Shown here: piece after piece, positions 3,083 through 50,531 of the stretch | Numbering within the stretch: the first letter of the stretch is position 1 | Layout: the number at the start of each line of letters is the position of its first letter | Virus record (IMG/VR): IMGVR_UViG_3300042987_002196 | Location: 1-55,939 of that record | Source: a virus | Lineage: Duplodnaviria; Caudoviricetes | Length of the DNA: 55,939 bases | Strand: one strand, 5' to 3' | The notes under the pieces: generated by a model | What the model saw: the letters and a program-made list of their open reading frames with translations, nothing else | The model's database searches: none | What the model was told of the DNA's origin: nothing | Position numbers and translations under genes: made by a program

Positions 3083-3220
3083 ATGAAACGCATTCCGCTC
3101 TTGCTGCCTCCAGACATGCTTGCCTGGCTCGATGCCAAGACCAGAGGCGTCGAAAACCGGAACACCTTTATCCGCCGGCTGATCGCCGAAGCCATGAAGC
3201 ACGACCAGGAGGCCCGCTGA
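3083..3220 (+). CDS. Small ribbon-helix-helix-like DNA-binding protein (45 aa, not in ORF track)
   Basis: MKRIPLLLPPDMLAWLDAKTRGVENRNTFIRRLIAEAMKHDQEAR; TGATG coupling to primase. Confidence 0.7.
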   Translation: MKRIPLLLPPDMLAWLDAKTRGVENRNTFIRRLIAEAMKHDQEAR

Positions 3221-5865
3221 TGCAGGCGCCTGATTTCGACGCCGCACGCCAGTTCCTGGCTGCCCTCGGCAAACCCAAGGGCGCCATACGCCTGCGTGGC
3301 TTCTACGCCAAGACCGACCCGCGCAAGGCCAACGATCACGGCGCCAAGGGTGACCCCACCAAGGCCCTGATCGAGGGCTGGGTGGCCGACAAACGCGGCG
3401 TCTACGTCGTGATCAACAACGGCGGTGACAAGGATGTCGACATCACCGGCTGCATTGCCCTGTTCTGCGAATGGGACGATCGCCCCAAGGACTGGCAGGT
3501 CACGGCATGGCAGGAACTCGGCCTGCCCGAGCCCAGCCTTCAGGTCGACACTGGCGGTAAATCCATCCACAACTACTGGATCCTCTCCGAGCCGGTGACC
3601 GCCGAGCAGTGGAAGCCCATCCAAACCCGCCTGCTTGACTACGCCGACGCCGACCGCCAGCTCAAGAACCCCTCGCGGGTCATGCGCCTACCTGGCACGC
3701 CGCACCCCGAGACCGGACAGCAGGCAGCGATCATCCACCAGAGCGACGCCCGCTACACGCTCGCGGATTTTGCAGCCAGGCTCCCCGAGCCGGTGGTTGA
3801 TCGCCGCATTGAGCAGGCCCGCACCTTCACCGACTACGAGGCCCAAGGGCTTGACGAGATCCAGAAGGCGCTCAGCTGCATACCGCCTCGAGTACCCGGT
3901 GGTGGCACATATCCGATGTACCGCAACATCCTCTGGGGCTTGATCAAAGCCTGCGAGGAGGCCGGCAGCTCAGCCGATACCGCCATCTCGATGATGGCCA
4001 GCCACAGCCCGCAGTGGACCGGCATCGAACAGATTGCACGATCCGGTGGTGCAGATATCACCGCCGGCAGCTTCTGGTACTGGGCCAAGCACCACGGCTA
4101 CCAGGCGCCGCGCAAGGTGCGACCTGGGCCGCCGGAGCTGCGCAACTTGCCTCCCACGCCCGCTGCAGAACCTGCTCACGAGCCGGCCGAGATCCCAGAC
4201 GAGGAGCCGGATCTCGAGGACGATGCTCCGGGATCTTCCCTGCCATTTCGCCCCCTAGGCTTCGATCACGGCATCTACTACTACTTGCCGGCCGCGGCCT
4301 GCCAGGTTCTTGCCCTGACCGCCGCCCAGCACAACAAGTCCCATTTCTTGCAGCTCGCAAATCTCGAGTGGTGGGCAAACGGCTTCGGCAATGAGCGCGG
4401 CCGCATCGACTGGGATTCGGCGCAGAACGCCGTCATGAGTTCCTGCATCGCGCAGGGCGTCTACGATCCGTCACGTCTGCGTGGTCGCGGCGCCTGGGCT
4501 GATGCCGATCGCGTCATCCTGCACCTCGGCAACCGACTGGTAATCGATGGGTGCTCAAGCCCCATCACCAAGTTGCCCAAAGGTTTCAAGAGCTACTACT
4601 TCTACGAAAACGCCAAGGCCATTGACGGTCCCGGCAACGAATCTCTGTCCGACGACCTTTGCAACAGCATCAAGAAGATCGCTCGTCGGTTCAGGTGGGA
4701 AACTCCAGCATCGGCCAACCTGTTGCTCGGCTTCATCGTCCTCGCACCTGTTTGCGGCTCCCTCAAGTGGCGCCCGCACATCTGGGTCACCGGTGGTGCC
4801 GGCACCGGCAAGACCACAATCCTGGGCTCTTTCATGAAGCCCTTGCTCGGTGGCATGTTCGAGGGCGCGACCGGTGGAACCACGGAGGCCGGCCTGCGCG
4901 GCCAGCTGCGCTCTGACGCCATCCCGGTAGTGTTCGACGAGCTCGAGCAGAACGAGCTCAAGGACAAGCTGCAGGTTCAGAACATCCTCGCCCTCGCCCG
5001 GATCGCGTCATCTGAAGGCGGCAAAATATACAAGGGCACGACAAGTGGTGGCTCGAATACGTTTGAGATCCGCTCAATGTTCTGCGTCAGCTCAATCAAC
5101 GTCGCCCTGATCCAACGCGCCGACCTCGACCGTTTTTGCGTACTTGGCCTGCGCAAAGATCAGATGGACAAGGATGATTGGACCGAATTTGAGCAGGAAA
5201 TCTTGAAGACCTGCACCGAAGACAACGGCCGCCGTTTGGTGGCACGCACGATTAAGCAAATCCCCACGATTCGCACCAACGCCAAGACACTTGCATCGGT
5301 GCTTTCGCAGTGTTTCGGGCAGCGATTTGGTGATCAGTACGGCACCTTGCTTGCCGGCGCGTGGACCCTCGAGGCCAACGGCGGTGGCGAGCTAACGGTC
5401 GAGGCCGCAAAGAAATGGGTCGACGGCATGGACTGGAACAGCCGTGAAGTCGATCGCAACGACGCCGATGAGATGAAGTGCCTCAACCACATCCTTCAGG
5501 CCATGGTGCAGGTGGATGGCGGCCGCCGTATGACCCTGCTGGAGCTGGTGCAGATGGCCGTCGACGATGTCTTGTACGTCGGACACAGCACCACGGAGGA
5601 GGTGGCAACGGTGCTGGGGCGGCACGGCCTCAAGGTGACCGCCGGCTGCCTTGCGATCTCGAATAACAGCACCGCGCTGCAGAACCTGCTTAAGGACACC
5701 CCTTGGGCAGGCAACGCATACCGTCAAGCGCTGCGTCGATTACCCAATGCAACGGCGTCGACGACCACGGTGCGGTTCCCGGCGAGCGGAGTGGCTCGCG
5801 CAACGTTAATCCCACTTGAGACACTTGAGACTGAGGGTGAAACGGCCGAAACCGTTACAAAGTAA
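3220..5865 (+). CDS. Primase-helicase (RepB-like primase, PriCT-2-like domain, P-loop helicase)
   Basis: DTGGKSIHNYW and NPSRVMRLPG primase motifs; GGAGTGKTT Walker A; VVFDE Walker B. Confidence 0.88.
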   Translation: MQAPDFDAARQFLAALGKPKGAIRLRGFYAKTDPRKANDHGAKGDPTKALIEGWVADKRGVYVVINNGGDKDVDITGCIALFCEWDDRPKDWQVTAWQELGLPEPSLQVDTGGKSIHNYWILSEPVTAEQWKPIQTRLLDYADADRQLKNPSRVMRLPGTPHPETGQQAAIIHQSDARYTLADFAARLPEPVVDRRIEQARTFTDYEAQGLDEIQKALSCIPPRVPGGGTYPMYRNILWGLIKACEEAGSSADTAISMMASHSPQWTGIEQIARSGGADITAGSFWYWAKHHGYQAPRKVRPGPPELRNLPPTPAAEPAHEPAEIPDEEPDLEDDAPGSSLPFRPLGFDHGIYYYLPAAACQVLALTAAQHNKSHFLQLANLEWWANGFGNERGRIDWDSAQNAVMSSCIAQGVYDPSRLRGRGAWADADRVILHLGNRLVIDGCSSPITKLPKGFKSYYFYENAKAIDGPGNESLSDDLCNSIKKIARRFRWETPASANLLLGFIVLAPVCGSLKWRPHIWVTGGAGTGKTTILGSFMKPLLGGMFEGATGGTTEAGLRGQLRSDAIPVVFDELEQNELKDKLQVQNILALARIASSEGGKIYKGTTSGGSNTFEIRSMFCVSSINVALIQRADLDRFCVLGLRKDQMDKDDWTEFEQEILKTCTEDNGRRLVARTIKQIPTIRTNAKTLASVLSQCFGQRFGDQYGTLLAGAWTLEANGGGELTVEAAKKWVDGMDWNSREVDRNDADEMKCLNHILQAMVQVDGGRRMTLLELVQMAVDDVLYVGHSTTEEVATVLGRHGLKVTAGCLAISNNSTALQNLLKDTPWAGNAYRQALRRLPNATASTTTVRFPASGVARATLIPLETLETEGETAETVTK

Positions 5866-6410: not shown

Positions 6411-7166
6411 ATGGCCGGTGAGATCCAGTTCGAAGGCAACAAGCTGGTGCGCGACCTCGATGTGTTCGCCAAGGTCCAGCTGCCGTTCATGTCGTCGCTG
6501 GCGATCAACCGCACCGCCACCCACGTCCGCGATTCGCTGCGTGGCTCGATGCGTGGGACGTTCACCTACCTGACGCCCTACACGCAGAACTCGCTGTTCA
6601 TGCGCGTCAGCACCAAGCAGAAGCTTTACGCCGACGTTGGCATCAAGGAATTTGGCTCTAAGGGCAACGCAGCTGCTGATTACCTGCGGCCGCAAATCTT
6701 TGGCGGTCCGGTCTATCGAACGCGGTTCCAACGCCGCCTAGAACGTCAGGTCGGGCTGGGGTCTGGTTATATGCTTCCGCTGCACAGCAGTGACGCTGCG
6801 CAGCTGGGGCCGAGCGGCCGGATCATCGCAGGACAGTACACCGCAGCGCTGTACGGAATTCGAGCGATGGAAGATATTCGCGGCTCGGGGAGATATGGCA
6901 AGTTCGACTACAAAACACTCGGCACCTACACCTACATCCGGCCGGGGCAGCTGGTGTTTGGGCGCAACAGCAACAGGCCGCTGGCGCCGGGCATCTACCG
7001 GGTGCAGGGCACGGACCTGTCAATGCTGTTCAAGCAGCTGCGGCGGACGCCGAGCGTGCAGAAGAAGTGGGACTTCTACGGCATCGCGCAGACAAGCGCC
7101 GAGCGGAAGCTGCCCAAAGCGTTCGACGAGGTGTTCCGCGAGGTGATGGGCAAACCGAATGTGTAA
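6411..7166 (+). CDS. Phage protein, possibly gpZ-like morphogenesis family
   Basis: 251 aa; SLAINRTA...TPYTQNSL motif resembling basic phage proteins found upstream of terminases. Confidence 0.6.
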   Translation: MAGEIQFEGNKLVRDLDVFAKVQLPFMSSLAINRTATHVRDSLRGSMRGTFTYLTPYTQNSLFMRVSTKQKLYADVGIKEFGSKGNAAADYLRPQIFGGPVYRTRFQRRLERQVGLGSGYMLPLHSSDAAQLGPSGRIIAGQYTAALYGIRAMEDIRGSGRYGKFDYKTLGTYTYIRPGQLVFGRNSNRPLAPGIYRVQGTDLSMLFKQLRRTPSVQKKWDFYGIAQTSAERKLPKAFDEVFREVMGKPNV

Positions 7167-7238
7167 CGGTTTGTTACAGCAGTGGGCGTGAGCTGGGCAT
7201 GCGTGGGGTACGGTGGCGGGGTATTTGACGCATTACCC

Positions 7239-7427
7239 ATGGCCACCGACCCCAAGGTCGCCATTGCTTTGCACGGCCTCGTCAGCAACCAGCTCAACCG
7301 CGGCCGCACGCTGGAGCAGATCCGCGATCAGTTCTTCGATGCCGACACCGATCTTGAGCTGATCGAGGCATTCAGCGAGCCCGAGTGGCTGCAGTCTGTG
7401 CTGATCGAAGCGAGGGCAGCGCAATGA
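7239..7427 (+). CDS. Hypothetical protein
   Basis: ATG 7239; ATGA overlap with next gene. Confidence 0.6.
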   Translation: MATDPKVAIALHGLVSNQLNRGRTLEQIRDQFFDADTDLELIEAFSEPEWLQSVLIEARAAQ

Positions 7428-7660
7428 CGGCGGTTGAGAGCTACGTGATGGCGCTGGTGCTCGGCGCCATTGATGGCGGCAGCCGTGAGCTGTGCCAAGA
7501 CATCGCAGTGGAGCTGGCACTGAGCAACGACTTCAGCTTTGAGGAGCGGCTGGCGATGCGCGACGCAGCTGCAATGGTCCTGCGCACCCGTCATCCTGAG
7601 GTTGAGCTGCTGGATGCCATCCGCATTGCACTGGATTGCTATCTGATACCAGCGGGCTAA
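7424..7660 (+). CDS. Hypothetical protein
   Basis: ATGA-coupled ORF ending before a terminator. Confidence 0.6.
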   Translation: MTAVESYVMALVLGAIDGGSRELCQDIAVELALSNDFSFEERLAMRDAAAMVLRTRHPEVELLDAIRIALDCYLIPAG

Positions 7661-7689
7661 GCTGCGTGCGGACAAGGAGAGAGGACCAG

Positions 7690-7718
7690 CGGTCTGTCGG
7701 GAGGCAGGCCGTTTTTTT
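7690..7718 (+). terminator. Rho-independent terminator
   Basis: CGGTCTGTC-GGGA-GGCAGGCCG stem followed by T7. Confidence 0.75.
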
Positions 7719-7739
7719 GTGGCCTTGAGTCCCCTCGAC

Positions 7740-8246
7740 CTATCCGAAGTTCGCAAATTCACCGAAGTGGTCGTGGGCGGCCTGGCAATACGCCATGTGG
7801 GCGGCCAGCTCGTCATGAAAGTAGCCGAGATGAGTCGATCTACCGTTGATGCGGATCTGGGCCATCCACTTGCGCTTGCGCTTGTACCAGCTCACGCCTT
7901 TATAGGCAGAAGTGGTACTGCTTCTTTTTCGCTGGTTGCGCACGTTTTCTGCAGCGGTGGCAAGTCGCAAATTGCAAATTCTGTTGTCGCTTGGGTTTCC
8001 GTTGATATGGTCAATTGCTTTCTCGCCTGGATTTTCACCATAAGCAAATAGCCATGCAAGGCGATGGGACTGCATGTTTATCCCGTGCAAGCGAATTTGC
8101 TTATAGCCGCTTCCGTTCGTCCAGCCAGCCTTCTTGCCTGGTTGCATCTTCTTGCCTGAGCACTTTAGCCAGAAGAACTCGCCAGTTTCCGCGTCGTAAC
8201 GCAGCCACTCCCTCAGCTTCGCGAGGTGCGGTAAACTCTTTGCCAT
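7740..8246 (-). CDS. HNH homing endonuclease with C-terminal AP2 domain
   Basis: HRLAW...IDHINGNPSDNRICNLR...N; SAYKGVSW..KWMAQI...HLGYF. Confidence 0.93.
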   Translation of the reverse strand: MAKSLPHLAKLREWLRYDAETGEFFWLKCSGKKMQPGKKAGWTNGSGYKQIRLHGINMQSHRLAWLFAYGENPGEKAIDHINGNPSDNRICNLRLATAAENVRNQRKRSSTTSAYKGVSWYKRKRKWMAQIRINGRSTHLGYFHDELAAHMAYCQAAHDHFGEFANFG

Positions 8247-8324
8247 CAGCCTGGGTTTGCGGGTTGATCACGCCTCGGGAGTTTGCGGCTCGCCGGGGCA
8301 CAAAAATCCTACCGCAGGCCATCG

Positions 8325-8446
8325 AAAAACTTAGGGACCCGGGCACTCGAGGCTTAATAGGAGTGTGTTTTGAAGCTCCTGGCCGTTCAAAAAAATTAGG
8401 GACCCGGGGGGCAAAGGTTTAATAGGGGGTGTTTTTGACCCTCCTG
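8325..8446. repeat. Two imperfect ~57-bp direct repeats (period 65)
   Basis: AAAAA(C/A)TTAGGGACCCGGG...TTAATAGG..GTGTTTT..CTCCTG at 8325-8381 and 8390-8446. Confidence 0.85.
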
Positions 8447-8465
8447 TTTTCGTGTTTTGGCTGAA

Positions 8466-8480
8466 AATGAGAATCATTCT
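8466..8480. promoter_or_regulatory. Fur-box-like site
   Basis: AATGAGAATCATTCT, core of the 19-mer repeated at 12073-12161. Confidence 0.55.
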
Positions 8481-8520
8481 GAATAGGGCCAATGTCAGCG
8501 ATTCCACACACACACACGAC

Positions 8521-8658
8521 TAGTACATCCGTTCGCTAATACATTTGTACTACCCGTATTTGTAGTACATTTGTACTACTTAAAGAGTACATTTGTACGC
8601 TAGTACATTTGTACTATTGTCATTTGCAGTACATTTGTACGCTAGTACATTTGTACTA
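8521..8658. promoter_or_regulatory. Tandem array of cyanobacterial-type LexA (SOS) boxes
   Basis: Perfect TAGTACATTTGTACTA at 8563, 8601, 8643; variants at 8537, 8585, 8627; degenerate copy at 8521. Confidence 0.75.
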
Positions 8659-8670
8659 TTAAGCCCGGCC

Positions 8671-8689
8671 GAGAATGAGAATCATTCCC
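8671..8689. promoter_or_regulatory. Fur-box-like site
   Basis: GAGAATGAGAATCATTC, exact reverse complement of the core at 12074, 12111, 12145. Confidence 0.6.
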
Positions 8690-8928
8690 ACGGCCAGGCC
8701 GGCAGGATCCCCCCACCCGACGCGCCGCGGTTTCGATCGGCGCTCTCCTTATGTATGGGGCGGCCAGGCCGACCCATTGCCTAGGTGCGTCCGCACAGTC
8801 GCAAGGAGCGCCGCGCCAGTGGCAACTAGGCCAATTGGCAAACTGACCCCACGCCCTCGCATCCGGGCCGGCCAGGGGGCATCATTCCCGCAGGCGCCAT
8901 CGCGCCATCCCATCGCGCCTAACACCAA

Positions 8929-9270
8929 ATGACCCTTACAATCACCCGGGCGCCCGCGCCCGCCTTCCCTCCCATTGATGATGCGATCGCCGCCCTTAGC
9001 GCGATCGATTGGCAAGCGGCCGCCGCCCGCGCCCTCGCCCTCGCCCTGACCGTTGCCGCGGTCTGCCACGCCCTCGCTGTTCGCCTGGCCCCGATCGTGG
9101 CCGCCGCCCTACGCGCCCTCGCCGATCGGATCGACCGGCCCGCGCCCATCGCGCCCGCCGCCCGCCTGACCGTGGCCGAACTGCGCGCCGCCGCCCGCGC
9201 CGCCGGTCTGCCGCGCCGCCTTTATATGTACGGCCGCCGGGCCGAGCTCCTGGCCGCCCTCGCCGTGTGA
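8929..9270 (+). CDS. Ala-rich protein with C-terminal Rho-N/HeH-like motif
   Basis: LTVAELRAAARAAGL...RRAELLAAL; preceded by the conserved leader. Confidence 0.65.
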   Translation: MTLTITRAPAPAFPPIDDAIAALSAIDWQAAAARALALALTVAAVCHALAVRLAPIVAAALRALADRIDRPAPIAPAARLTVAELRAAARAAGLPRRLYMYGRRAELLAALAV

Positions 9271-9365
9271 CGGTCGACAATCCGCACGCCCGCCCCTTGA
9301 TGGCGCCCCGTGAGGCGCCATCATTCCATCAACGGCCGAACGGTCGTTCCATCGCATCTAACACC

Positions 9366-9608
9366 ATGCCTGCCCCTTCCTTCCGCATCGAAACGTTCCG
9401 TGGCACGGCCGCCGGATGGGCGCCCGCCTCGCCCGCCGCTGTCAGTGCTGATACGGCCGCCCGTCGGCTCCGCCTGTATCAGGCCGTACGCGGCGACGCC
9501 CGCCTGTATCGGGTCGCGCCCGTGATCCTGCCGGGCGAATCTGCCGCCGCTGTCGCCGCCCTGCCGCGCCCCGTTGTCACCGGCGCCGCCCTTCCGGCGA
9601 TCGCCTGA
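9366..9608 (+). CDS. Hypothetical protein (80 aa)
   Basis: ATG follows CCATCGCATCTAACACC leader. Confidence 0.65.
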   Translation: MPAPSFRIETFRGTAAGWAPASPAAVSADTAARRLRLYQAVRGDARLYRVAPVILPGESAAAVAALPRPVVTGAALPAIA

Positions 9609-9633
9609 CCCTTCCCCATCGCATCTATCACCC

Positions 9634-9864
9634 ATGGCACGTATCACGCCCAATCAGCTCCACAAGGCCGCCGAGCGGGTCAGTTGCGCCCTCTACGGCG
9701 ACAGCCGCCCTAGCGAAATCTTCTGCCAACGTTCGGCCACCGGTTGGCACGTCATGCGCCGGTTCGGCGCCGGAGCTCAGCCGCTCGGCGAATGCTTAAC
9801 GCCCGGCGAGGCTCAGCAGTTGCTGAGCGGTCTGGCCATCGGCGCCGCCCTCGTTCGGTCATGA
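9634..9864 (+). CDS. Hypothetical protein (76 aa)
   Basis: ATG follows CCCATCGCATCTATCACCC leader. Confidence 0.7.
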   Translation: MARITPNQLHKAAERVSCALYGDSRPSEIFCQRSATGWHVMRRFGAGAQPLGECLTPGEAQQLLSGLAIGAALVRS

Positions 9865-10037
9865 CCCGCCCCGATCGCGCCCCGTGGCGCCAGTTACCGG
9901 CGGGCATGGTTGCCTCGTCCGATCCGGCCATGGCCGATCAGCTCGCCGCGATTCTCGCCGCCTACGCCGCCCGCGTCGCCGCCGGCCACCACGCCGCGCC
10001 ATCGCCTGATCGTTGGGCGATCAGCGACCGCGACTGA
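9861..10037 (+). CDS. Hypothetical protein (58 aa)
   Basis: ATGA overlap with upstream gene. Confidence 0.5.
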   Translation: MTRPDRAPWRQLPAGMVASSDPAMADQLAAILAAYAARVAAGHHAAPSPDRWAISDRD

Positions 10038-10067
10038 TCGCCCGCCCATCCCATCGTACCTAGCACC

Positions 10068-10631
10068 ATGCCTACTGTTCAGACCTGCCGCGTCGCCACC
10101 AAGATGGGCGACGCTATGGCGCCCGCCCATTGGGTGGGCCAATGGGTCGCCCTGACCCCGCCCTGTGATTCCGCCCGCCATTTCCCGGTTTGCCGCGGCC
10201 AATGGGTGATCACCCATAGGGCATCAGGCCTTAGCGCCGGGACTCTTCGCTGCAGCAAGCGGCGGGCCGCTGAGATCGCCCGCCAATGGGATCACCGGTT
10301 CGCGCTGATCGATCCTGCCGACGCCCGCGCCTGGCCGTTCGCCCGCCAATGGGCCGATCTGGTTGCGTCGATTAATGCACCATGGCGCGATCCGGCGCCC
10401 GCCGCCAATGATTCCACCGAGACCGCTTGTGAGCTCGCCGCCCGCGCCGGTCTGCCGATCGATCAGGCCGGCGGCGCCCGCCGGATCTGGTGGCGCGGCA
10501 AATTCTGGCCGCCCCCCACCAACGGCGAGCTCGAGCTCTGGACTCTGGACAGCTGCTGCGAGACGCCCGACGGCCGAACTGTTGAGCCGGACGCGCCCGA
10601 TTCTTGGCTGTCGATTCTCCGCCTGATCTGA
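10068..10631 (+). CDS. Hypothetical Trp-rich protein
   Basis: Leader motif; C-terminal WTLDSCCETPDGRTVEPDAPDSWL. Confidence 0.7.
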   Translation: MPTVQTCRVATKMGDAMAPAHWVGQWVALTPPCDSARHFPVCRGQWVITHRASGLSAGTLRCSKRRAAEIARQWDHRFALIDPADARAWPFARQWADLVASINAPWRDPAPAANDSTETACELAARAGLPIDQAGGARRIWWRGKFWPPPTNGELELWTLDSCCETPDGRTVEPDAPDSWLSILRLI

Positions 10632-10650
10632 TCACCCCGCACCTAACACC

Positions 10651-11718
10651 ATGCCCGCCGCTCTGATCCGCTCAAACGCCCGCGTTGCCCTGCCCGCCGA
10701 CGTGGCCGCCCATCTCGCTCGGTTCGGCCTGACCCTGGCCGACGTGCTGACAGACTCGAACCAGAAGCTAGGCAAAGGCGCCGAGATCGCCCGCGCCGTC
10801 ATTCACCACGGATTGCCGGGCCGCGCCCTCGCCGCCGCGATCGATCCCGCGAACCGGTCGACCGTGGCGCCCCGCGGCCATCTCGCCGCCCTCGCCGCCC
10901 TCGCCGATCGCGAGGGTATGACGGCCGCCGCGTCGGTGTTCAATGCCTGCCCGTGGGCTACGGAAGGTTGCGCGTCGGCCTGTCTAGCGTGGGCCGGCCA
11001 CGGCGGATTGTCGCCCGCGGTCGCCGCCGCCCGTGGCCGCCGGACTCTGGCAATGATCGCCGACCCCGCCCTCTACGGCCGGGCGATCCTATGGGCGATC
11101 GCCCGCCAATGGTCCCGCGCCCAGGCCGACGGTCTGCCCCTGGCCGTTCGGCTCCGTGGCACGGATGATCAGCCATGGCACGTTCGGCGGTTAAATGTCG
11201 ATCTGCCGGAGGCGATCGCGATCCGTCGCCGGTTCGGTCTGCTGATCGCGAACGGCGAGGGCCGGACTCTGGCCGAGCTGCTGTCGCCGGCCACGGCCGA
11301 CGGATCGATTCGCCTATATGAATACAGCAAAGCGCCGGTCGACGGGCCGCTCGGTCTGATCGCGCAACGGGCCGCCGGCTGGGATATCACCGCCAGCCTG
11401 GCCGGCGATCGCCCGACGGCCGCCGCCGACGCGATGGCCGCCGCCCTCGCCGGCTTCCGTCTCGCCGTGCCGATCGATCTACCTAAGGGCGCCCCGATCC
11501 CGGCCCGCGTGCTGATCAGCCATGGCGGCCAGACCGCCGCCCTGCGGGCGATCGATGGCGACGCCACCGACCACCGGTGGGCGGATCCTGCGCCCGTGGC
11601 TGTGATCCTGAGGGCGAAGCGATCCCGCGGCGCTGATCCGAACCTGGCCGGATTCATCCTGCCCAACGCGCCGCTAGTCCGCCTGCCCGACGGAATCATT
11701 CAGCTGATGCCCGCGTGA
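10651..11718 (+). CDS. GP88-like protein with Cys cluster
   Basis: SNQKLGK, CPWATEGCASACL, VRLRGTDD, YEYSK resemble the phage gene-product-88 family. Confidence 0.65.
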   Translation: MPAALIRSNARVALPADVAAHLARFGLTLADVLTDSNQKLGKGAEIARAVIHHGLPGRALAAAIDPANRSTVAPRGHLAALAALADREGMTAAASVFNACPWATEGCASACLAWAGHGGLSPAVAAARGRRTLAMIADPALYGRAILWAIARQWSRAQADGLPLAVRLRGTDDQPWHVRRLNVDLPEAIAIRRRFGLLIANGEGRTLAELLSPATADGSIRLYEYSKAPVDGPLGLIAQRAAGWDITASLAGDRPTAAADAMAAALAGFRLAVPIDLPKGAPIPARVLISHGGQTAALRAIDGDATDHRWADPAPVAVILRAKRSRGADPNLAGFILPNAPLVRLPDGIIQLMPA

Positions 11719-11742
11719 TCCGTTCCGGCGATCGATCGACCG

Positions 11743-11766
11743 GCCCGCCAGTTCGGCGGGCTTTTT
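11743..11766 (+). terminator. Rho-independent terminator of the island operon
   Basis: GCCCGCC-AGTTC-GGCGGGC-TTTTT. Confidence 0.85.
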
Positions 11767-11775
11767 AGTTTGCAT

Positions 11776-11802
11776 AAAGAAAGGGGGGCAATTGCCCCCC
11801 TA
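11776..11802 (-). terminator. Terminator for the minus-strand small gene
   Basis: GGGGGGCAATTGCCCCCC palindrome followed on the minus strand by TTTCTTT. Confidence 0.65.
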
Positions 11803-11803
11803 T

Positions 11804-11953
11804 TTAGTATTCAGTTTCGAGATCGATTGCTTCGATCTCTTTAATTAATGCTCGCGTCCGTTTGAGTAACTCTTGCGTCCGACGGTTCGACTCTTCATCG
11901 ATGCGGCGCAGTTCTTCTAATCGAGCTGCGAACATATCAGCGATTGATTGCAT
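11804..11953 (-). CDS. 49-aa charged helical protein (not in ORF track)
   Basis: MQSIADMFAARLEELRRIDEESNRRTQELLKRTRALIKEIEAIDLETEY; TATAAT in palindrome at 11994-12004 upstream, terminator downstream. Confidence 0.65.
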   Translation of the reverse strand: MQSIADMFAARLEELRRIDEESNRRTQELLKRTRALIKEIEAIDLETEY

Positions 11954-12072
11954 AAATTAAAGTGCAACGAAAAGTGAGCAGAACTGCTCACACTATAATT
12001 ATAGCAAATACTGGCGCGATCGGGCGAGATTGTAACAATTCTTAATGAGTAGTTCCGTACTACTCTCGGGTA

Positions 12073-12233
12073 AGAATGATTCTCATTCTCGCGGCCCCGC
12101 CGTTTAATGAGAATGATTCTCATTCTCCTGGCCATGGGTATTGAGAATGATTCTCATTCTCGCGGCCCCGGCTTATTGATTCTCAATTGCAAGTGTTATT
12201 GATTCTCAATGGGTCCCTGCAAATGATTCTCAG
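12073..12233. promoter_or_regulatory. Cluster of Fur-box-like sites
   Basis: GAGAATGATTCTCATTCTC at 12109 and 12143, near copy at 12073, degenerate TTATTGATTCTCAAT at 12173 and 12196; reverse complement matches GATAATGATAATCATTATC at 16/19. Confidence 0.65.
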
Positions 12234-12260
12234 CGGGGGTGAATTCGAATCTCGTTATTG
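12211..12260 (+). other. Candidate cos region
   Basis: GGGTCCCT (lambda cosQ is GGGTCCT) ~220 bp upstream of a lambda-type terminase. Confidence 0.4.
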
Positions 12261-12430
12261 ATCTAGGCATCGGCCGCGCAACTTGGTTTGAGTCCAGCCT
12301 GTCTCACGCAAAGACCCCCCTTTCCCCGCCAACGAGGCAACCGACCAGACTACCCTCCAGGACAGCGTTTTGGGGAGAGTGTCAACCAAGACTGTAAACC
12401 TGTAACATCGGTTCACATCAACGGCATCCC

Positions 12431-12967
12431 GTGCCGCTCATCACCAAGTCAGAGGCGGCCGACGCGCTGGGCGTGTCCCGCACGGCGGTCTACAAGGCGA
12501 TCAAGCAGGGCCGGCTCCCGGTCGTGCGGACCTCTGATGGCAAGGAGCTGATCAAGTCCGAGACGCTGCGCGAGGACTGGTTCGCCAACACCATGGCCAA
12601 GATCGGCGTTGGCCCCAAGCCGCCGATGGGCGAGACCGCCTTTCCTCCAGAGCGACCCAAGCGAGACCGATCACTCACCGAGCCCGAACCCGGTGACATT
12701 GTCCCCGACTACAACGAAAGCCGAGCCCGCACCGAGTACCTCAAGGCCGAGCTGCTTGAGCTGGAGCGCAAGGAGAAGGAAGGGCTGCTGGTGCGGGCGG
12801 CCGAGGTCGAGGCGAAGTGGGTCGAGGTAATCACGATCAGCCGCACCAAGGTGCTCGGCATCGCCAGCAAGGCGAAGCAGCGGATCCCCGATCTCACCCA
12901 AGATCAGATCGCGATCTTGGAAGACATCGTGCGCGAGGCGCTCGAGGAGCTGGCGAGCGATGGCTGA
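12431..12967 (+). CDS. terS: Terminase small subunit (HTH plus Nu1-like coiled coil)
   Basis: SEAADALGVSRTAVYKAI HTH; ESRARTEYLKAELLELE...EGLLV; overlaps terL. Confidence 0.88.
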   Translation: MPLITKSEAADALGVSRTAVYKAIKQGRLPVVRTSDGKELIKSETLREDWFANTMAKIGVGPKPPMGETAFPPERPKRDRSLTEPEPGDIVPDYNESRARTEYLKAELLELERKEKEGLLVRAAEVEAKWVEVITISRTKVLGIASKAKQRIPDLTQDQIAILEDIVREALEELASDG

Positions 12968-14813
12968 CATCAGCGACATCGCGAAGGCCGCGCTGCAGGC
13001 GTGGAAGCCACCGGAGAAACTGACGCTGAGCGAGTGGGCAGACCGGTATTTCTACCTATCGGCGGAGTCGAGCGCTGAGGCCGGCCGCTGGCACACGCTG
13101 CCCTACCAGAAGGGCATCATGAACGCGATCACGGATCCAGCGATCGAGCAGATCTCGGTGATGAAGAGCGCTCGAGTGGGATACACCAAGTGCCTCAACG
13201 CCTGCATCGCGTTCCACATCCACCAGGATCCGTGCCCGATGATGCTGGTGCAGCCGACGATCGAGGACGCCCAGGGCTACTCGAAAGAGGAGATCGCGCC
13301 GATGCTGCGCGACGTGCCGGTGCTCAAGGGATTGGTGAGCGACAGCAAGGCCAAGGACGGCGCCAACACGATCCTGCAGAAGCAGTATCCGGGCGGCACT
13401 CTCGGCCTGGTGGGTGCTAACTCGCCGCGGGGCTTCCGTCGTGTGAGCCGCCGGATTGTGATGTTCGACGAGACCGACGGCTACCCACCGAGTGCTGGCC
13501 CCGAGGGCGACCAGATCAAGCTCGGTATCCGACGGACGGAGTATTACTGGAACCGCAAGATCGTGGCTGGGTCGACGCCGACCCTCAAGGACGCGAGTCG
13601 GATCGAGCGGCTGTTCAGCCAGGGCGACCAGCGGCGGTATTTCGTGCCCTGCCCCGATTGCGGACACATGCAATACCTGAAGTGGGCAAACATGCGCTGG
13701 GACGATCAGCTGTCGCCAGTGAATTACGTGTGCGAGAGCTGCGGCGTCCTGATCCCGCATTCAAAGAAGCGCTGGATGGTGGAGCGCGGCCAGTGGCGGG
13801 CGACAGCACCGGGCAACGGCAAGCACGCGAGCTTCCACATCTGGGCGGCCTACAGCTACTCACCGAACGCCAGCTGGGACAACCTGCGCGATGAATTCCT
13901 CGAGGCGAAGTCTGACCCTGAAGCGCTGAAGACGTTCGTCAACACGGTGCTTGGCGAGAGCTGGGAGGACGATTATGCGGCGAAGGTGGGCGCCGACAGC
14001 CTGCTGGAGCGTGCGGAGTTCTACGAGAGCCAGATGGTGCCGGCCGAGGCATCAGCGGTGACGATCGGATGCGACGTGCAGGACAACAGGCTGAGCCTGT
14101 CGATCTGGGCATGGGGCCGCGAAGAAGAAGGCTGGCTGATCGATCGCCAGGTGATTCACGGCGACCCGAGCCGGCCGGAGCCGTGGAAGCAGCTGGATGA
14201 GATTTTGCTGAAGCCGTTCAAGCATGCGCTGGGCGCCGAGATCAGGCCGGACGTTGTCTGCATCGACTCTGGCGGCCACCACACAATGGAGGTGTACCAA
14301 TACGCGAGGGAGCGCCAGAACATGGGCGTGATCGCGATCAAGGGTCAGAGCCAGAAGGGCAAGCCACCGATCGGCAAGCCAGCGAAGGTGGATCTGAACC
14401 ACAAGGGCAAGGCGCTGAAGAAAGGCGCTGAGGTGTATCCGGTCGGATCTGACACGGTGAAGAGCCTGCTGTTTGGCCGGTTGAAGCACAACGAGCCTGG
14501 GCCGGGCTACCTGCACTTCTATGCAGAAGCCGGGAAGGAGTATTTCGAGGAACTGACTGCAGAAAAGCAGATCACAAGGTTCGTGCGGGGCTACCCCGAA
14601 AGGGTATGGGTAAAGAAATCAAGCCAGCGCAATGAAGCGTTAGACGAACTGGTTTATGCGTACGCAGGATTAAATCGGCTGTACCAGCGGTACGACCGAA
14701 GAACAATCTGGGATCAGCTGGAGAAACGGCTCGAAAAGCCCGTAGAAAGGGAGCGAAAGGCCCCGCTAAGATCGAACAAGGCTCCAAAACGGAGTTTTGT
14801 CCGCCAGTGGTGA
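12960..14813 (+). CDS. terL: Terminase large subunit, lambda gpA family
   Basis: KSARVGYT Walker A, MFDETD, GSTPT, IGCDVQ, RNEALD. Confidence 0.97.
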   Translation: MADISDIAKAALQAWKPPEKLTLSEWADRYFYLSAESSAEAGRWHTLPYQKGIMNAITDPAIEQISVMKSARVGYTKCLNACIAFHIHQDPCPMMLVQPTIEDAQGYSKEEIAPMLRDVPVLKGLVSDSKAKDGANTILQKQYPGGTLGLVGANSPRGFRRVSRRIVMFDETDGYPPSAGPEGDQIKLGIRRTEYYWNRKIVAGSTPTLKDASRIERLFSQGDQRRYFVPCPDCGHMQYLKWANMRWDDQLSPVNYVCESCGVLIPHSKKRWMVERGQWRATAPGNGKHASFHIWAAYSYSPNASWDNLRDEFLEAKSDPEALKTFVNTVLGESWEDDYAAKVGADSLLERAEFYESQMVPAEASAVTIGCDVQDNRLSLSIWAWGREEEGWLIDRQVIHGDPSRPEPWKQLDEILLKPFKHALGAEIRPDVVCIDSGGHHTMEVYQYARERQNMGVIAIKGQSQKGKPPIGKPAKVDLNHKGKALKKGAEVYPVGSDTVKSLLFGRLKHNEPGPGYLHFYAEAGKEYFEELTAEKQITRFVRGYPERVWVKKSSQRNEALDELVYAYAGLNRLYQRYDRRTIWDQLEKRLEKPVERERKAPLRSNKAPKRSFVRQW

Positions 14814-19005: not shown

Positions 19006-20022
19006 ATGATCGCTGGGCTAATCGAGGCCAAGCGGAACTACAACCCCTCCCTGGTTTCGGCCGGGGAGGGCTTTCTGTTGGCGTACCGGTCTGAACCGAA
19101 AGACTTCAAGGTCAGCGAGATCATTCTTGCTGAGATGGATGCGGCGCAAAATGTGCTGCGCAACCAGCGCCTGAAGGTGCCTGGAATTGAGAAGGGATGC
19201 TCATTAGAGGATCCGCGGCTGTTTATGTACGGCGATTGTCCGTACATCGCGTTCTCGATCGCCCGGTATCGGCTTGAGCAAGGTTGGAAGTGCGTGCAGG
19301 CGTACGGCCGACTGATCAAGAAAAGCCGCAGCTGGAGCCTGACTGATGTGTGGGTACCGAAGTACGGTGTCAACGACTGGAGCAGCAAGGAAAAGAACTG
19401 GACGTTCTTCGAGGCTGAGGGTGCCCTGCGCTGCATCTACGACATGGGTGCGAGCGGCTGGGTCGTACTTGAACTTGATGGCGACGAGGTGGTGCAGGAG
19501 TGGAGGCACCCTCCCCTGCGCTGGCGCTGGGGCCGGATGAGCGGCGGCACGCCTGCTGTCGACTGGCAGGGCCAGAAGCTGACGATGTTTCACAGCTGGG
19601 AGAAACACCCGCGCCGCAGTCGGCTGTATCACGCCGCATGGGTGGCATTTGGTGCTACGGCGCCGCATGCGCCTTCGATGATGTCGACGGCACCGGTGCT
19701 GACTGCAAAAGAGGAATGGGGTGCGCCAGATGGTGCGCAGGGCTGGCAGCCGCTTTGCGTGTTCCCAGGCGGGCTTGAGGTGATTGGCCAGAAGGCACTG
19801 ATCGCCTACGGCAGGAACGACCTGGACTGCGCGATCGATGCGATCCGGGTGGAGCAGATGCGGCGCATCTCTACCGCCGTTTCGTCACGCGGCGAGGTAA
19901 GGATCCGCCTTACCGGAGATGTGATGATCAAGGGCCAGCCAGCCTGGGCTGGAACTGAAGTCGCTGTGCTGGCAAGCGATGCGGCTAGCCTGATTGCACG
20001 ACAGAAGGCGGTGCCGTTGTGA
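19006..20022 (+). CDS. GH130/GH43-like beta-propeller protein fused to a small post-capsid module
   Basis: NYNPSL, EDPRLF, EKNWTFF, SGGTP, VFPGGL, YGRND; likely start ATG 19006. Confidence 0.65.
   Translation: MIAGLIEAKRNYNPSLVSAGEGFLLAYRSEPKDFKVSEIILAEMDAAQNVLRNQRLKVPGIEKGCSLEDPRLFMYGDCPYIAFSIARYRLEQGWKCVQAYGRLIKKSRSWSLTDVWVPKYGVNDWSSKEKNWTFFEAEGALRCIYDMGASGWVVLELDGDEVVQEWRHPPLRWRWGRMSGGTPAVDWQGQKLTMFHSWEKHPRRSRLYHAAWVAFGATAPHAPSMMSTAPVLTAKEEWGAPDGAQGWQPLCVFPGGLEVIGQKALIAYGRNDLDCAIDAIRVEQMRRISTAVSSRGEVRIRLTGDVMIKGQPAWAGTEVAVLASDAASLIARQKAVPL
19045..19077 (+). terminator. Post-capsid terminator inside a coding sequence
   Basis: CCCTCCCTGG-TTTCGG-CCGGGGAGGG-CTTTCTG. Confidence 0.6.
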
Positions 20023-44755: not shown

Positions 44756-45054
44756 GATTCGCCTCTCGCGACGGCACGGTCACATTCGACGAGGGGCTTG
44801 AGACTGCTTATGAGCTGTTTCGCGAGGGTCGCATCCAAGATGCGGCCATGATGTTCCTCGTCTACGCAGACCCCGACGCGATCGGCATCGTCGGCGAGAG
44901 CGAGTACAACGCTCTCGCTGCCCATTTCAAAGAGATGATGGCGTACGTGAAGCTGTACCAAATGATCTGCGACGAGCTCGCGCAGCCACTGCTCAGCGAA
45001 AACGGCAAGCCGGCCTACATGGTCGGGCCGGCGGCTGAGGACGACGAAGACTAG
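44752..45054 (+). CDS. Hypothetical acidic protein
   Basis: ATGA-coupled to thyX. Confidence 0.65.
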   Translation: MRFASRDGTVTFDEGLETAYELFREGRIQDAAMMFLVYADPDAIGIVGESEYNALAAHFKEMMAYVKLYQMICDELAQPLLSENGKPAYMVGPAAEDDED

Positions 45055-46163
45055 ATCTGATCAGCCACAGCCCTCGCCATCGCTTGCGCTCCATCCTCGA
45101 GTAGGTGCGCGTAGCGGTTGGTGGTCAGCGGGCTGGCATGGCCGAGCAGATTGCCGACCTGCGGCAGCGTCAGGCCAACCTTGGTGATCGCCACCGACGC
45201 CCAGTGGTGCCGCAGGTCATGCACCTTCAGGTTCTTGATGTCGGCAAGGACCATCAGCTCTTCCCATAGGTTCTGATACCCCACCAGATAGCCATCGTCC
45301 TGCCCTGCGATAATCCATTGTGTATTTGATTTGAGTCTCAATTCTCTCAAAATGAGAATTCCTGCAGGAGGAATATGCACTACACGCTTTTGGCCAGTGC
45401 GATTGCCAGTCTTGTGACTGTCGGCGGGTATCGCGATCACGCCTGTTTTCTCGTCGAACCACTCCCATCTAGCGCGGCAGATTTCACTCACGCGGCACCC
45501 CGTCAGCATCAGCAGCCGTATCAGCTGAGCGAACCGCCAGCGCAATGGCGAGGTGGCTATCGCGTCCAGTGCGGCCACCAGCCGCTGTCGCTCTTCGCCT
45601 GACAGGTAACGCCTCCGCTTGCGCTCGGTGTTGGCCGGCACCTTGGCGCAGGGGTTGTCCGCCCGCAGGCCCCACAGGATCGACAGGTTGAACGCCTTGC
45701 GCAGCACCGCCAGCGTCCGGTTGGCTTGGATCGGCCGGATGCGCGACAGCAGACGCATCACCTCGGCGCTTGTGACCACCTGCACCTTCTGTCGCCCCAG
45801 CTTCGGGATGATGTGGACCTGCCAGATGCTCTGGTAGTTCTTCGCCGTGCCCGGCCGGAGCTTCGGGTAGTGCTCGGCCAGCAAGCGCTGGTACAGATCA
45901 GCCATGTCGGGGCCGCGGCGCAGTTCCTGGCGGGCGCTGGTGGGTGCATGCCCACGCGCCACGGCGGCAAGGATCTTGTGCGCCTCCTCGCGGGCCAGCG
46001 TGCGGTTGAGAATGTCAGCCCGGCCGATCTTGTGATGCTGCTGTTTGCCGCTCGGTTCGCGGTAGCGCAGATACCACGTTTCGACACCGCTCGGCAGCAC
46101 CAACAGGCCCAGTCCGGTGACCTTTGAGTCTGGCTTCCACTCGCGTTTCATACGTCCCTCCAT
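45051..46163 (-). CDS. int: Tyrosine integrase with arm-binding domain
   Basis: TGCRVSE, HDLRH, LLGH, RYAH; N-terminal GLGL..SG.ETW..RYR. Confidence 0.96.
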   Translation of the reverse strand: MEGRMKREWKPDSKVTGLGLLVLPSGVETWYLRYREPSGKQQHHKIGRADILNRTLAREEAHKILAAVARGHAPTSARQELRRGPDMADLYQRLLAEHYPKLRPGTAKNYQSIWQVHIIPKLGRQKVQVVTSAEVMRLLSRIRPIQANRTLAVLRKAFNLSILWGLRADNPCAKVPANTERKRRRYLSGEERQRLVAALDAIATSPLRWRFAQLIRLLMLTGCRVSEICRARWEWFDEKTGVIAIPADSHKTGNRTGQKRVVHIPPAGILILRELRLKSNTQWIIAGQDDGYLVGYQNLWEELMVLADIKNLKVHDLRHHWASVAITKVGLTLPQVGNLLGHASPLTTNRYAHLLEDGAQAMARAVADQI

Positions 46164-47623: not shown

Positions 47624-47943
47624 GACTTGAAGACCGAGCACTGGGCAGCGAACCTTCCACCAGTCTGGCGAGCCTCGGGCCAGCCGAAGTCACAGTCAGC
47701 GTTCACTGGCAGCCAGTGGATGCACTGCCAGCACATCGGGCGATCCTTGGCGTTCTTCTGGTGCTTGCGGCGGAAGTCGAAGTAGATCCGCTCCGCCTTG
47801 AACACCGCTTCGTTCACGTCGGATGTCTCAAGGCAGGTCTTCAGCTGCTGCTCAGCTGTCGACCCGAGCCTGATGCGTAGATACCAAATGCCAGCCTCCT
47901 GATGGAGGATCATTCGGCCGGCGTGGTATCGCTTCTGGGCCAT
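47608..47943 (-). CDS. Hypothetical protein with Cys cluster
   Basis: CWQCIHW...CDFGWPE...C. Confidence 0.7.
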   Translation of the reverse strand: MAQKRYHAGRMILHQEAGIWYLRIRLGSTAEQQLKTCLETSDVNEAVFKAERIYFDFRRKHQKNAKDRPMCWQCIHWLPVNADCDFGWPEARQTGGRFAAQCSVFKSCPTR

Positions 47944-49103: not shown

Positions 49104-49493
49104 TCACGCCTCCACCTCCGGCGCCACCAACATCTGCCGGATCCTGGCCGCTGTGAACGACCCGCGGGCAATGCGGTTCCAGATCACGCGCATCGCAGCC
49201 ACAGCCTCCTGGTCAGCCATGCAACTGCCGCATTCATCCAGCGCTTTGGTCACGGCCTGGTGGGTCTCGCGGTACAGCTCAGGGTCAGGCTGCATCAGCG
49301 CATCACGCCACTCGGCAACCTCGCCGAGCGACTGAACGCCGAAGTTCTTGAGCTTCATCAGATCGGCCGTCGTGGCCAACATGATCTGCTCAGCAGTGAA
49401 GTAGCCGCCCTGCAGCAGGGCGTTGATGGTGCGGGTGCGCATGTAGCGCAGTGTTTCCGGGATCAGCCGGAAATCATCTTCAGTCGGGTGCAT
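49104..49493 (-). CDS. RNA polymerase alpha-CTD-like protein
   Basis: RTINALLQGGYFTAEQI...DLMKLKNFGVQSLGEV resembles alpha-CTD R..N.L...DLL...NFG.KSL.EI. Confidence 0.75.
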   Translation of the reverse strand: MHPTEDDFRLIPETLRYMRTRTINALLQGGYFTAEQIMLATTADLMKLKNFGVQSLGEVAEWRDALMQPDPELYRETHQAVTKALDECGSCMADQEAVAAMRVIWNRIARGSFTAARIRQMLVAPEVEA

Positions 49494-49995
49494 TGATCGA
49501 GTTGAGGTGATCGATAAGTTCTTGGCGGGTCTGCCACATCGGGCGGCCGTCGATCTGGCGCTCCATCTCGGCAATAGCGCGATGGATGCCTTTCAGGAAC
49601 CAGAACCGGCTGATCGCAGCGACCTTGGGTGCATGGTCAAGCAGTTGGTCCCAGATCTTGTCTGGGCAGCTGTTCCAGTCGATGTCTTCGCGGAGAGTCA
49701 TCCAGGGCTCAAGCGCCTGCTGGAGTGTCATCTTCCGGGTCGAGCCACTCGATGAGGTTCCACCAGGGGCCGTATTCATCGAAGGCTTTGGCTTTGGCAT
49801 CGGTGAAACTGGCGGCGGTGACGTAGTCGAAGACGTTCGACTGGGGAATGGTGAAGTGATAGTGGCGTTCTGTCATTCGCAAACGGGGAAAGGCCCGGCA
49901 GCAGGATGGTGAGCGACGCGACAGCTGACCGCGTGTTCGTGGACGATCAGCGCGATCGTGGCCACGGGGATCAAGAAAATCAGCAGGCGTTTCAT
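49480..49995 (-). CDS. Three small hypothetical genes (49480-49731, 49709-49876, 49873-49995)
   Basis: Overlapping ORFs; 49873-49995 has a hydrophobic N-terminus. Confidence 0.55.
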
Positions 49996-50054: not shown

Positions 50055-50531
50055 TCACACTTCGTAAAGGTCGCAGTCGCCGGCGAAACTGGTGCCCTCC
50101 TCCAGTGGATCCGGGAAGCCGATTCCACACTCAGTGCCACTCCAATGCCGGCACTGCGAGCAGTCGCTCCATGGCCGCCGCGGCAGCTCCGGGAACGCAC
50201 TGGCCCAACTGATGCCACGCCGGATCTGGCTGATCGCCTGGCGGCTGACACCAAGCTCCCGCGACAGCTTCACGTCAGAGATCTGCTGATCGGTAAGCGC
50301 ACGTCGGACCTGCTCCACGGTCAGCTTTTTCGGTGCCAGACGGCCCGGCTTGCGCTTTCGTGGTGGCTTGCGATCAGGCCCGATCGTCGTCCAGCGCTCG
50401 CAGCAGTCGTTGCATTGCCACCGGCGCCGCACCAACCCATCAAGGCGTGGCCTGCTTTCACGAACAAATCGGTTGTTGTGTTCACAGACAGGCGTGCCTA
50501 CCGTTGAAGAATCGCTGCTGTTGGAATCCAT
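50055..50531 (-). CDS. NrdR-like Zn ribbon plus HTH plus Cys-rich protein
   Basis: ESR...RRRWQCNDCCERWTT; LSRELGVSRQAISQIR; CSQC..C. Confidence 0.75.
   Translation of the reverse strand: MDSNSSDSSTVGTPVCEHNNRFVRESRPRLDGLVRRRWQCNDCCERWTTIGPDRKPPRKRKPGRLAPKKLTVEQVRRALTDQQISDVKLSRELGVSRQAISQIRRGISWASAFPELPRRPWSDCSQCRHWSGTECGIGFPDPLEEGTSFAGDCDLYEV

Follow-up and report, generated by a model that had tools for sequence, protein, structure and literature searches.

Why would a temperate phage carry, beside its packaging site, dense arrays of what look like binding sites for two stress regulators of its host? The question is raised by a block of about 4 kb in the IMG/VR virus record IMGVR_UViG_3300042987_002196, which occurs in freshwater and lake metagenome assemblies and was analysed over its whole length (55,939 bp, complete according to CheckV; hereafter the window). 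By its gene content this phage is a lambda-like temperate siphovirus. The block opens with an array of LexA-type boxes flanked by Fur-type boxes, continues with an operon of small genes (the island) that ends in a gene of the GP88 family, and closes with a second array of Fur-type boxes next to the cohesive end (cos) and the terminase genes. The answer we favour, to which we would give about an even chance on the sequence evidence set out below, is that LexA and Fur of the host occupy these arrays and thereby place this right-end operon under the control of DNA damage and of iron or redox state.

Both motifs occur far above chance and, outside the two arrays, have one chance-like match each in the genome. 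The pattern RGTACNNNDGTWCB gave nine strand-matches in the 55,939 bp against 0.15 expected, a number reached by none of 100 shuffled sequences; eight of the nine represent five exact boxes (at 8564, 8586, 8602, 8628 and 8644), and the ninth, at 19353, is the chance-like one. Together with a one-mismatch box at 8538 and a degenerate box at 8522 they form an array of seven LexA-type boxes, where a preliminary description made from the sequence alone had counted six or seven SOS boxes. For the Fur-type motif, GAGAATCATTC with at most one mismatch yielded nine strand-matches over the whole window (0.88 expected, 0 of 100 shuffles reaching nine), located at 8469 and 8677 (left side) and at 12074, 12109/12111, 12143/12145 and 12221 (right side), with a lone chance-like outlier at 47905. 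The two Fur-like boxes on the left and at least five on the right that had been proposed were recovered as two left boxes and three strong plus three weaker right boxes. Their opposite orientation was seen in the window, where left and right 19-mers are mirror images (18 nt, 100% complementary), but is not kept in the distant relative L190.

The assignment of the boxes to LexA and Fur agrees with published sites. The phage box AGTACATTTGTACT fits exactly the LexA consensus of cyanobacteria, the 14-bp palindrome AGTACWNWTGTACT (Li 2010, PMC3091678), although the specificity of the LexA of this host may differ. The Fur-type boxes TGAGAATGATTCTCA and GAGAATGAGAATCATTC conform to the 7-1-7 inverted repeat TGAnAATnATTnTCA or to the 19-bp three-hexamer form of the Fur box. 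The 15-mer TGAGAATGATTCTCA is identical to the Fur box of an Enterococcus faecalis iron-transporter operon that is derepressed 12-18-fold in a fur mutant (PMC6056675), and the core ATTCTCAAT is common to the phage boxes and to the Anabaena FurA consensus AAATAAATTCTCAATAAAT (PMC4005646). Among the relatives, the Fur-type box is confined to two arrays per genome, a control with the reversed pattern giving 0 matches, and in G007 the boxes vary between GAGAAT and the canonical GATAAT hexamer.

In line with the earlier remark that a CI-like repressor is missing, a six-frame search of the phage found no Peptidase_S24 domain, and a tyrosine integrase gene is present. Because the phage encodes neither this peptidase nor a Fur or LexA DNA-binding domain, host proteins are the simplest candidates for binding the boxes. 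The large terminase (TerL) is closest, among isolated phages, to that of Synechococcus phage S-LBS1 (44.8% identity), with Roseobacter phages scoring nearly equally, and the host is probably a cyanobacterium. DNA searches against isolated phages returned no match for the region and a single 60-nt match for the structural region.

As had been described, the block lies directly upstream of the terminase, which consists of a Nu1-like small subunit (TerS) and a TerL of the lambda gpA type (see the table). A 13-nt cohesive end just 5' of terS can be read from contig ends: many related contigs start at the base equivalent to window position 12237 or 12238, 12 of 80 TerL loci start with GGTNAWTTCGAAT, the complete relative G001 has the identical 13 nt, GGTTAATTCGAAT, at both contig ends, and among 16 loci that stop soon after the GP88 gene three end with the cos motif and two more with near variants of it. 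A gpA-type TerL, a Nu1-like TerS and a cohesive end at this place are the hallmarks of lambda-type cos packaging. Since the cohesive end maps to 12238-12250, the block of about 4 kb is the extreme right end, that is the last 4 kb, of the mature genome. This end would be packaged last and ejected first; of the claim that the block lies at the first-injected genome end, the genome end is now mapped by the cos site, whereas the order of packaging and injection is drawn solely from analogy with lambda. The record itself is circularly permuted and its two ends join in the divergent early region, as in the collinear relative L182. On the terS side of the nick there is conserved DNA, a possible cosB. 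Just 5' of the cos sequence GGGTCC...GGTNAWTTCGAAT there is a palindrome, GCAATTGC / TTGCAATYGCAA (window 12180-12215; also in L190, L225, L251 and L265), which recurs in many relatives with or without Fur boxes and may be a cos accessory site.

The neighbourhood of cos bears on an alternative in which the boxes are sites of a phage protein or an element of DNA architecture, such as origin iterons, accessory sites of cos (cosQ- or IHF-like) or operators of a phage repressor. The last Fur-type box of the right array stops 6 nt from the cohesive end, other AT-rich repeat tracts occupy the same place in relatives and in S-LBS1, direct repeats of 35-60 nt lie 5' of the left array with replication genes just upstream, the cumulative GC skew is lowest at about 12-13 kb, where island and cos join, and the adjoining 46-aa ORF has a weak match to the regulator CapH (E = 0.0017), all of which such an alternative would accommodate. 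Box type and primase-helicase do not co-vary, however, so that the Fur boxes are not iterons of that enzyme: four of the five complete relatives that lack Fur boxes have a primase of 77-80% identity and the fifth has one of 69%, and in G006, with 13 Fur boxes, only the N-terminus is conserved. Sites for TerS are unlikely to make up the right array, since genomes that have this array and genomes that lack it share a TerS of 85-98% identity, and the 46-aa ORF is missing from L190, which has both Fur arrays. Arrays of 7-1-7 boxes in viral contigs with GC contents of 0.29-0.65 fit a near-universal host protein better, and both motifs equal published host consensuses. We therefore regard binding by a phage protein or a purely architectural role as unlikely.

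Conservation among relatives was as follows. Five of the six complete relatives have three to five LexA boxes in the corresponding position, preceded by tandem direct repeats and followed by the island; the contig of G004 breaks off within its LexA array, and G006 has eight Fur-type boxes in place of the LexA boxes. Close relatives carry sets of seven LexA plus two Fur, six LexA plus three Fur, or no LexA and eight Fur boxes. When three genomes with arrays were aligned, 88 of 98 box columns proved invariant, compared with 15 of 38 spacer columns (Fisher p = 5e-9), a pattern that indicates purifying selection on the boxes. In IMG/VR, pattern scans detected both motif types side by side in six further contigs (L179, L187, L190, L193, L198 and L204; GC 0.52-0.61), which share with the window only distant homologues of the flanking genes, namely of ORF 6411-7166 (26-28% identity), the GP88 gene (43%) and TerL (41-48%). 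The complete layout recurs in L190 (TerL 48% identical): the flanking gene, three direct repeats, boxes in the order Fur-LexA-Fur-Fur and the conserved leader come first, then a small membrane/HTH protein, a pair of small ORFs and a GP88-like protein, and, after a terminator and three Fur boxes, a cos-like sequence with terS and terL. G013 (38.9 kb) likewise has arrays, island, Fur boxes, cos and the two terminase genes in this order, and in G012 (38.8 kb) the left arrays lie about 1.8 kb from the right end.

A survey seeded with the GP88 alignment gave 57 loci, 45 of them distinct, and 34 distinct loci had at least 2.5 kb of upstream sequence. At least one LexA-type box was present in 19 of these 34, at least two in 16 (0 of 680 shuffles), and a Fur-type box in 12 (5 of 680 shuffles). 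Given that 16 of 34 loci have two or more LexA-type boxes and 15 have none, the left LexA array appears to be a frequent, not a universal, trait of the family, and the Fur array on the cos side a minority trait. The arrays are thus not a peculiarity of one genome; of the two-sided bracket that had been described, the left side is common, whereas the right side is lineage-specific (8 of 43 distinct loci). LexA-type arrays of 3-8 boxes were also seen in other viral contigs with a GC content of 0.41-0.53, including L168 (GC 0.41, in the first 300 nt of a 43-kb contig), L143, L158 and the pair L128 and L130, where they lie about 1.1 kb 5' of a GP88 homologue. Of 48 IMG/VR matches to a triple AGTAC-N4-GTACT pattern, we discarded the majority, which represent a single near-identical repeat of low-GC contigs, judged by look to be coding. 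Fur-type 7-1-7 arrays recur in low-GC viral contigs (L197, GC 0.36, eight boxes; L175, GC 0.39, five boxes; L181, L201 and L202), and for this reason Fur-box arrays may be a wider phage feature; tblastn found none of the window proteins in L175 or L197. The ORFs beside Fur-box pairs in L184 and L185 are phage-like (DUF932, DUF7227, radical SAM), with no host iron genes among them.

The rapid turnover of the boxes raises the alternative that they exert no control in cis and are decoys which, once replicated to many copies, titrate LexA and Fur and derepress SOS and iron uptake to the advantage of the phage. The boxes are many, tightly packed and of consensus strength, their copy number and type shift fast among close relatives, the right array of L190 has no adjacent promoter or gene, and the arrays keep clear of the conserved promoter-like element described below, as would be expected of a sponge. 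Fur titration by multicopy Fur boxes is moreover a standard laboratory effect. A sponge would, however, need no fixed position, and the arrays keep theirs between the direct repeats and the island leader down to TerL identities of 41-48%; in addition, 15 of the 34 distinct relatives are devoid of any LexA-type box. Judged by title or abstract opening, the literature matches listed contained no natural decoy array on a phage and no precedent for a phage LexA- or SOS-box decoy, which does not disprove one. On balance we hold pure titration to be quite unlikely. A broader version, in which a family of temperate freshwater siphoviruses uses expandable and swappable arrays of consensus sites for host regulators at the first-ejected genome end as a sponge for, or a read-out of, the LexA and Fur pool, appears quite improbable too. 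Such arrays, built from LexA and Fur boxes together with further palindromes, would capture or count unbound LexA and Fur as the phage enters and replicates, so that either the SOS and iron regulons are derepressed or the choice between lysis and lysogeny is set by the number of filled sites; they would be a cis-DNA counterpart of protein anti-repressors.

If instead host LexA and Fur gate the operon, as we favour, the arrays would be landing pads for LexA, on five to seven near-contiguous consensus boxes, and for a Fur-family protein, likeliest Fur, on the 19-bp boxes. They head the last operon before cos, comprising genes A-E and the GP88-family protein, and in the window also lie between its terminators and the cos nick. 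In an unstressed lysogen or a newly infected cell both proteins would sit on the arrays and hold the operon, likeliest in the off state, by obstructing a promoter upstream or one that reads through, or by assembling into a repressive nucleoprotein block, and LexA cleavage after DNA damage, or release of Fur under iron starvation or redox stress, would act as the switch. Because the phage has an integrase but no self-cleaving repressor, the right-end operon is a likely point of entry of host stress into the prophage, resembling LexA-controlled antirepressor modules; antirepressors of this kind, encoded outside the immunity region, induce phages with non-cleavable repressors, as described for the Gifsy prophages (PMC3121763). 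The Fur boxes on the cos side could serve as an additional clamp that keeps transcription from crossing cos into terS, or could regulate the small divergent ORF; the array is not explained by this 46-aa ORF, since L190 lacks the ORF yet has the array.

The sequence CCTTATRTATGGG at 8746-8758 is the sole family-wide promoter-like element. It belongs to a conserved non-coding element that was found in 14 distinct sequences of the phage family, window included, some of them without LexA or Fur boxes, and that is followed about 33 nt further on by the first ATG in L260, L265 and L266. Two ORFs at this place were rejected: ORF 8675-8932, which runs over the leader and suffers frame-breaking indels between relatives, and a small ORF from the ATG of the conserved element, whose frame, judged by eye, stays open in L190 alone, ending after 9 codons in the window and after about 37 in L187. 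Upstream of the left array, the second direct repeat ends in a terminator-like hairpin (8425-8443) followed by a T-run; as terminators or structured RNA the direct repeats were dismissed, as they fold no better than shuffled sequences (z = 0.64).

Several observations weigh against gating by LexA and Fur. The arrays lie 60-230 nt upstream of the element at 8746-8758 and do not overlap it, a position other than that at which classical repressors act and one from which simple operator repression does not follow. In relatives, further palindrome or repeat arrays separate the boxes from this element, and a search of 8200-12500 for sigma-70-type promoters found none where 1.0 was expected. Fifteen of the 34 distinct GP88 loci have no LexA-type box in the 4 kb upstream, 35 of 43 have no Fur-type box within 650 nt 3' of the GP88 gene (8 of 43 have one), and to the left of its right array L190 has no gene that this array could control. 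None of the island proteins is similar to a known antirepressor or regulator, and the sequence does not separate Fur from its paralogues Zur and PerR. Cyanobacterial LexA may act as an activator at the hox genes, so that repression is not the only possible sign of control. Binding of cyanobacterial LexA far upstream of the hox genes is reported (PMC3091678). As to the host, the sole match in a TerL scan of genome contigs was a prophage-like locus of Acidobacteria (35% identity), which gave no host lead. A metagenome scan for TAGTACANNTGTACTA gave at least 119 stretches, of which the 80 loci listed were screened; 19 were left after those with GC below 0.5 had been dropped, and 10 flanking ORFs were picked by hand from nine of the 19. 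No SOS gene was among these 10, which encode response regulators, TetR, LysE, PIN and a TonB-receptor-like protein, a result uninformative on the host.

The distance between arrays and promoter-like element would also suit boundary roadblocks, with LexA and Fur insulating the island from read-through of the replication operon, and the late genes across cos from read-through of the island, until stress occurs. The left arrays come directly after the terminator-like repeats and the right array after two terminators, the arrays lie upstream of the promoter-like element and do not cover it, and for isiA of Synechocystis a Fur site has been described as a roadblock to transcription (PMC8634477). 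Strong intrinsic terminators already end the island, however, and most relatives do without the right array, so that we consider insulation decidedly unlikely. The coordinates of all features are collected in the table.

Features of the right-end block and of selected genes elsewhere in the window
Feature	Position	Strand	Remarks
Primase-helicase	3220-5865		
Two ~60-nt direct repeats (TTAGGGAC...GGYTTAATAGG)	8322..8446	+	relatives: 3-4 units at the same place
Left Fur-type box 1 (GAAAATGAGAATCATTCTGAATA)	8463..8485		
Array of 7 LexA-type boxes (AGTACATTTGTACT)	8522..8657		start-to-start spacing 16, 26, 22, 16, 26, 16
Left Fur-type box 2 (GAGAATGAGAATCATTCCCA)	8667..8690		
Conserved non-coding element (CCTTATGTATGGGG, palindrome, TGCCTAGGTGC)	8746..8800	+	promoter-like, family-wide
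Island gene A, 113 aa	8929..9270	+	hydrophobic central segment, weak SAP-like C-terminus
Island gene B, 80 aa	9366..9608	+	no family
Island gene C, 76 aa	9634..9864	+	no family
Island gene D, 58 aa	9861..10037	+	start overlaps stop of C (ATGA)
Island gene E, 187 aa	10068..10631	+	Cys- and Trp-rich, no family
Island gene F, 355 aa	10651..11718	+	GP88 family (PF17338, phrog_1617)
Two intrinsic-terminator-like hairpins	11742..11801		second bidirectional
46-aa helical ORF	11814..11953	-	
LexA-like box AGTAGTTCCGTACT	12048..12064		3 mismatches; counterpart in L006 and L077 is AGTAGTTTTGTACT, 1 mismatch
Right Fur-type array	12068..12235		3 full 19-mers and 3 weaker half-type boxes
Right-array 19-mers	12072-12090, 12109-12127, 12143-12161		
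Right-array weaker half-type boxes	12173-12187, 12196-12210, 12219-12231		
13-nt cohesive end (GGTGAATTCGAAT), cos cleavage region	12238..12250		read from contig ends of relatives
Small terminase, Nu1-like	12431..12967	+	N-terminal HTH; phrog_57, HTH_17
Large terminase, lambda gpA type	12960..14813	+	PF05876, PF20454
Tyrosine integrase	45051-46163		
Zinc-ribbon/HTH protein	50055-50531		candidate for the phage repressor

The small-gene operon between the arrays was found as described, with six plus-strand ORFs, two terminator-like hairpins and the 46-aa ORF on the minus strand. Searches of Pfam, PHROG and PADLOC assigned no family to the products of genes A-E. In the product of gene F, C100, C107, C111 and H117 are invariant; its predicted structure, which is confident (pLDDT 89.9), had no match in the PDB by sequence or fold, and in Atlas and BFVD it matched only GP88 and Gp37/Gp68-like viral proteins of unknown function. 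The view of the island as a self-contained novelty has to be given up in favour of a family-wide module that ends in a GP88-family gene. We likewise rejected a moron or recent insert: the composition of the island differs (GC 0.69-0.73 against about 0.60 elsewhere), but the GP88 module occupies the same place in relatives with 41-48% TerL identity. Five of the six HIP1 sites (GCGATCGC) of the genome fall within the island (8983-11412), which, together with its GC content, may point to a HIP1-rich high-GC cyanobacterium as the source of the island or as the organism to which it has adapted. The 17-nt motif CCATCGCRYCTAACACC (8910-8926, 9349-9365, 9616-9632, 10051-10067 and 10634-10650) ends 0-2 nt 5' of the ATG of five of the six island genes; these five matches compare with 0.45 expected, none occurs elsewhere in the genome, and no Shine-Dalgarno sequence is visible. 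The motif resembles the start-associated sequences of some mycobacteriophages. On its own strand the 46-aa ORF follows TGCTATAAT (12006-11998) and a palindrome of 18 bp (11974-11991). G006 is the only one of the six whole relatives compared that has this ORF, the same start region occurs in the L077 stretch of G007, and L128 carries a 43% identical copy.

Other repeats occupy the space between the LexA boxes and the leader in relatives (G001, G005, G010, L024; L006:3650-3720; L182:12830-13100), namely AAACAGYGCTGTTT palindromes (3-4 copies), CACGGTTAGGTG direct repeats and TATAACG-N4-CGTTATA palindromes, and in L182 a 26-nt unit is repeated many times there. The right end of S-LBS1 (L214:6260-6642), from the primase-polymerase gene to the end of the record, before terS, is filled with dense CCTAACCT / AGGTTGGGC arrays and holds no LexA or Fur boxes.

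Elsewhere in the window, the terminase genes are followed by the structural set, and genes for a lysozyme-peptidase, a dCTP deaminase, RecT, an exonuclease, a single-stranded DNA-binding protein (SSB) and a helicase were recognised. From position 50 to 39,000 the genes lie on one strand save for four short minus-strand stretches. An HNH-AP2 homing-type endonuclease (7740-8246, minus strand) and a 162-aa ORF without known function (7328-7816, minus strand) separate the replication operon from the arrays; among the six complete relatives only G006 has this pair, which looks like an insertion. The minus-strand gene at 49104-49574 encodes a 156-aa protein with a region resembling the C-terminal domain of the RNA polymerase alpha subunit (PF03118, E = 9e-7), which could direct the host RNA polymerase towards non-canonical promoters of the phage, for instance the element at 8746. 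An Rfam scan of 7000-13000 gave nothing close to the gathering score, and a tRNA search found none.

Picocyanobacterial lysogeny is ecologically important, its triggers are debated and, to our knowledge, very little is known of host sensing by temperate cyanophages. Prophage control by host LexA has been documented for a small number of phages that infect enteric bacteria, Vibrio and Bacillus, and a literature search for LexA boxes together with cyanophages found nothing related. A LexA plus Fur array would be a concrete, testable induction switch for UV, oxidative stress and iron limitation in lakes, and a sponge, if true, would be a new viral route to host reprogramming. The analysis also supplies a cos site and a genome orientation for a large group of uncultured phages. 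Control of phage modules by host regulators is already known; apparently new are the gathering of 4-8 consensus boxes in one array, the combination of LexA with Fur, the swaps of box type between close relatives and a position next to cos that is conserved across a large set of uncultured freshwater phages. The multiplicity of the boxes and the fast swapping of LexA, Fur and other palindromes are unusual.

Among known systems, coliphage 186 has a LexA-controlled antirepressor locus, p95-tum, near its right genome end. The present phage is like 186 and the Gifsy phages in being a temperate phage without a self-cleaving repressor that has a small-gene locus with host LexA boxes outside the immunity region. 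It differs in having five to seven boxes instead of one or two, with Fur boxes in addition, in the distance of 60-230 nt between boxes and promoter-like element, and in its island proteins, which are unlike Tum or GfoA and belong to an operon that ends in a large GP88-family protein. In the Bacillus phage GIL01, host LexA together with a small phage co-factor is the prophage repressor and acts at dinBoxes of early lytic promoters; DNA damage would be sensed in both cases by host LexA with no CI-type protein, but here LexA boxes occur only at the right-end operon and not in the early divergent region. Colicin promoters are reported to carry tandem SOS boxes and a second, iron-related repressor, a double lock that likewise combines LexA boxes with an iron-linked regulator on an operon costly if expressed at the wrong time; that operon is, however, a plasmid toxin operon with two overlapping boxes over its promoter, in contrast to up to eight boxes on a phage beside cos. 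Fur titration by multicopy sites underlies FURTA and synthetic transcription-factor decoys, with which the arrays share the presence of many high-affinity sites on a multicopy replicon. The cos region of lambda, finally, is organised as cosQ-cosN-cosB with IHF sites and a 12-nt overhang. A gpA-type TerL and a Nu1-like TerS to the right of the cohesive end, protein-binding repeats flanking the nick and the possible participation of a host DNA-binding protein are common to both, whereas the overhang read here from contig ends is 13 nt and the repeats on the cosQ side are Fur boxes, dispensable in most relatives.

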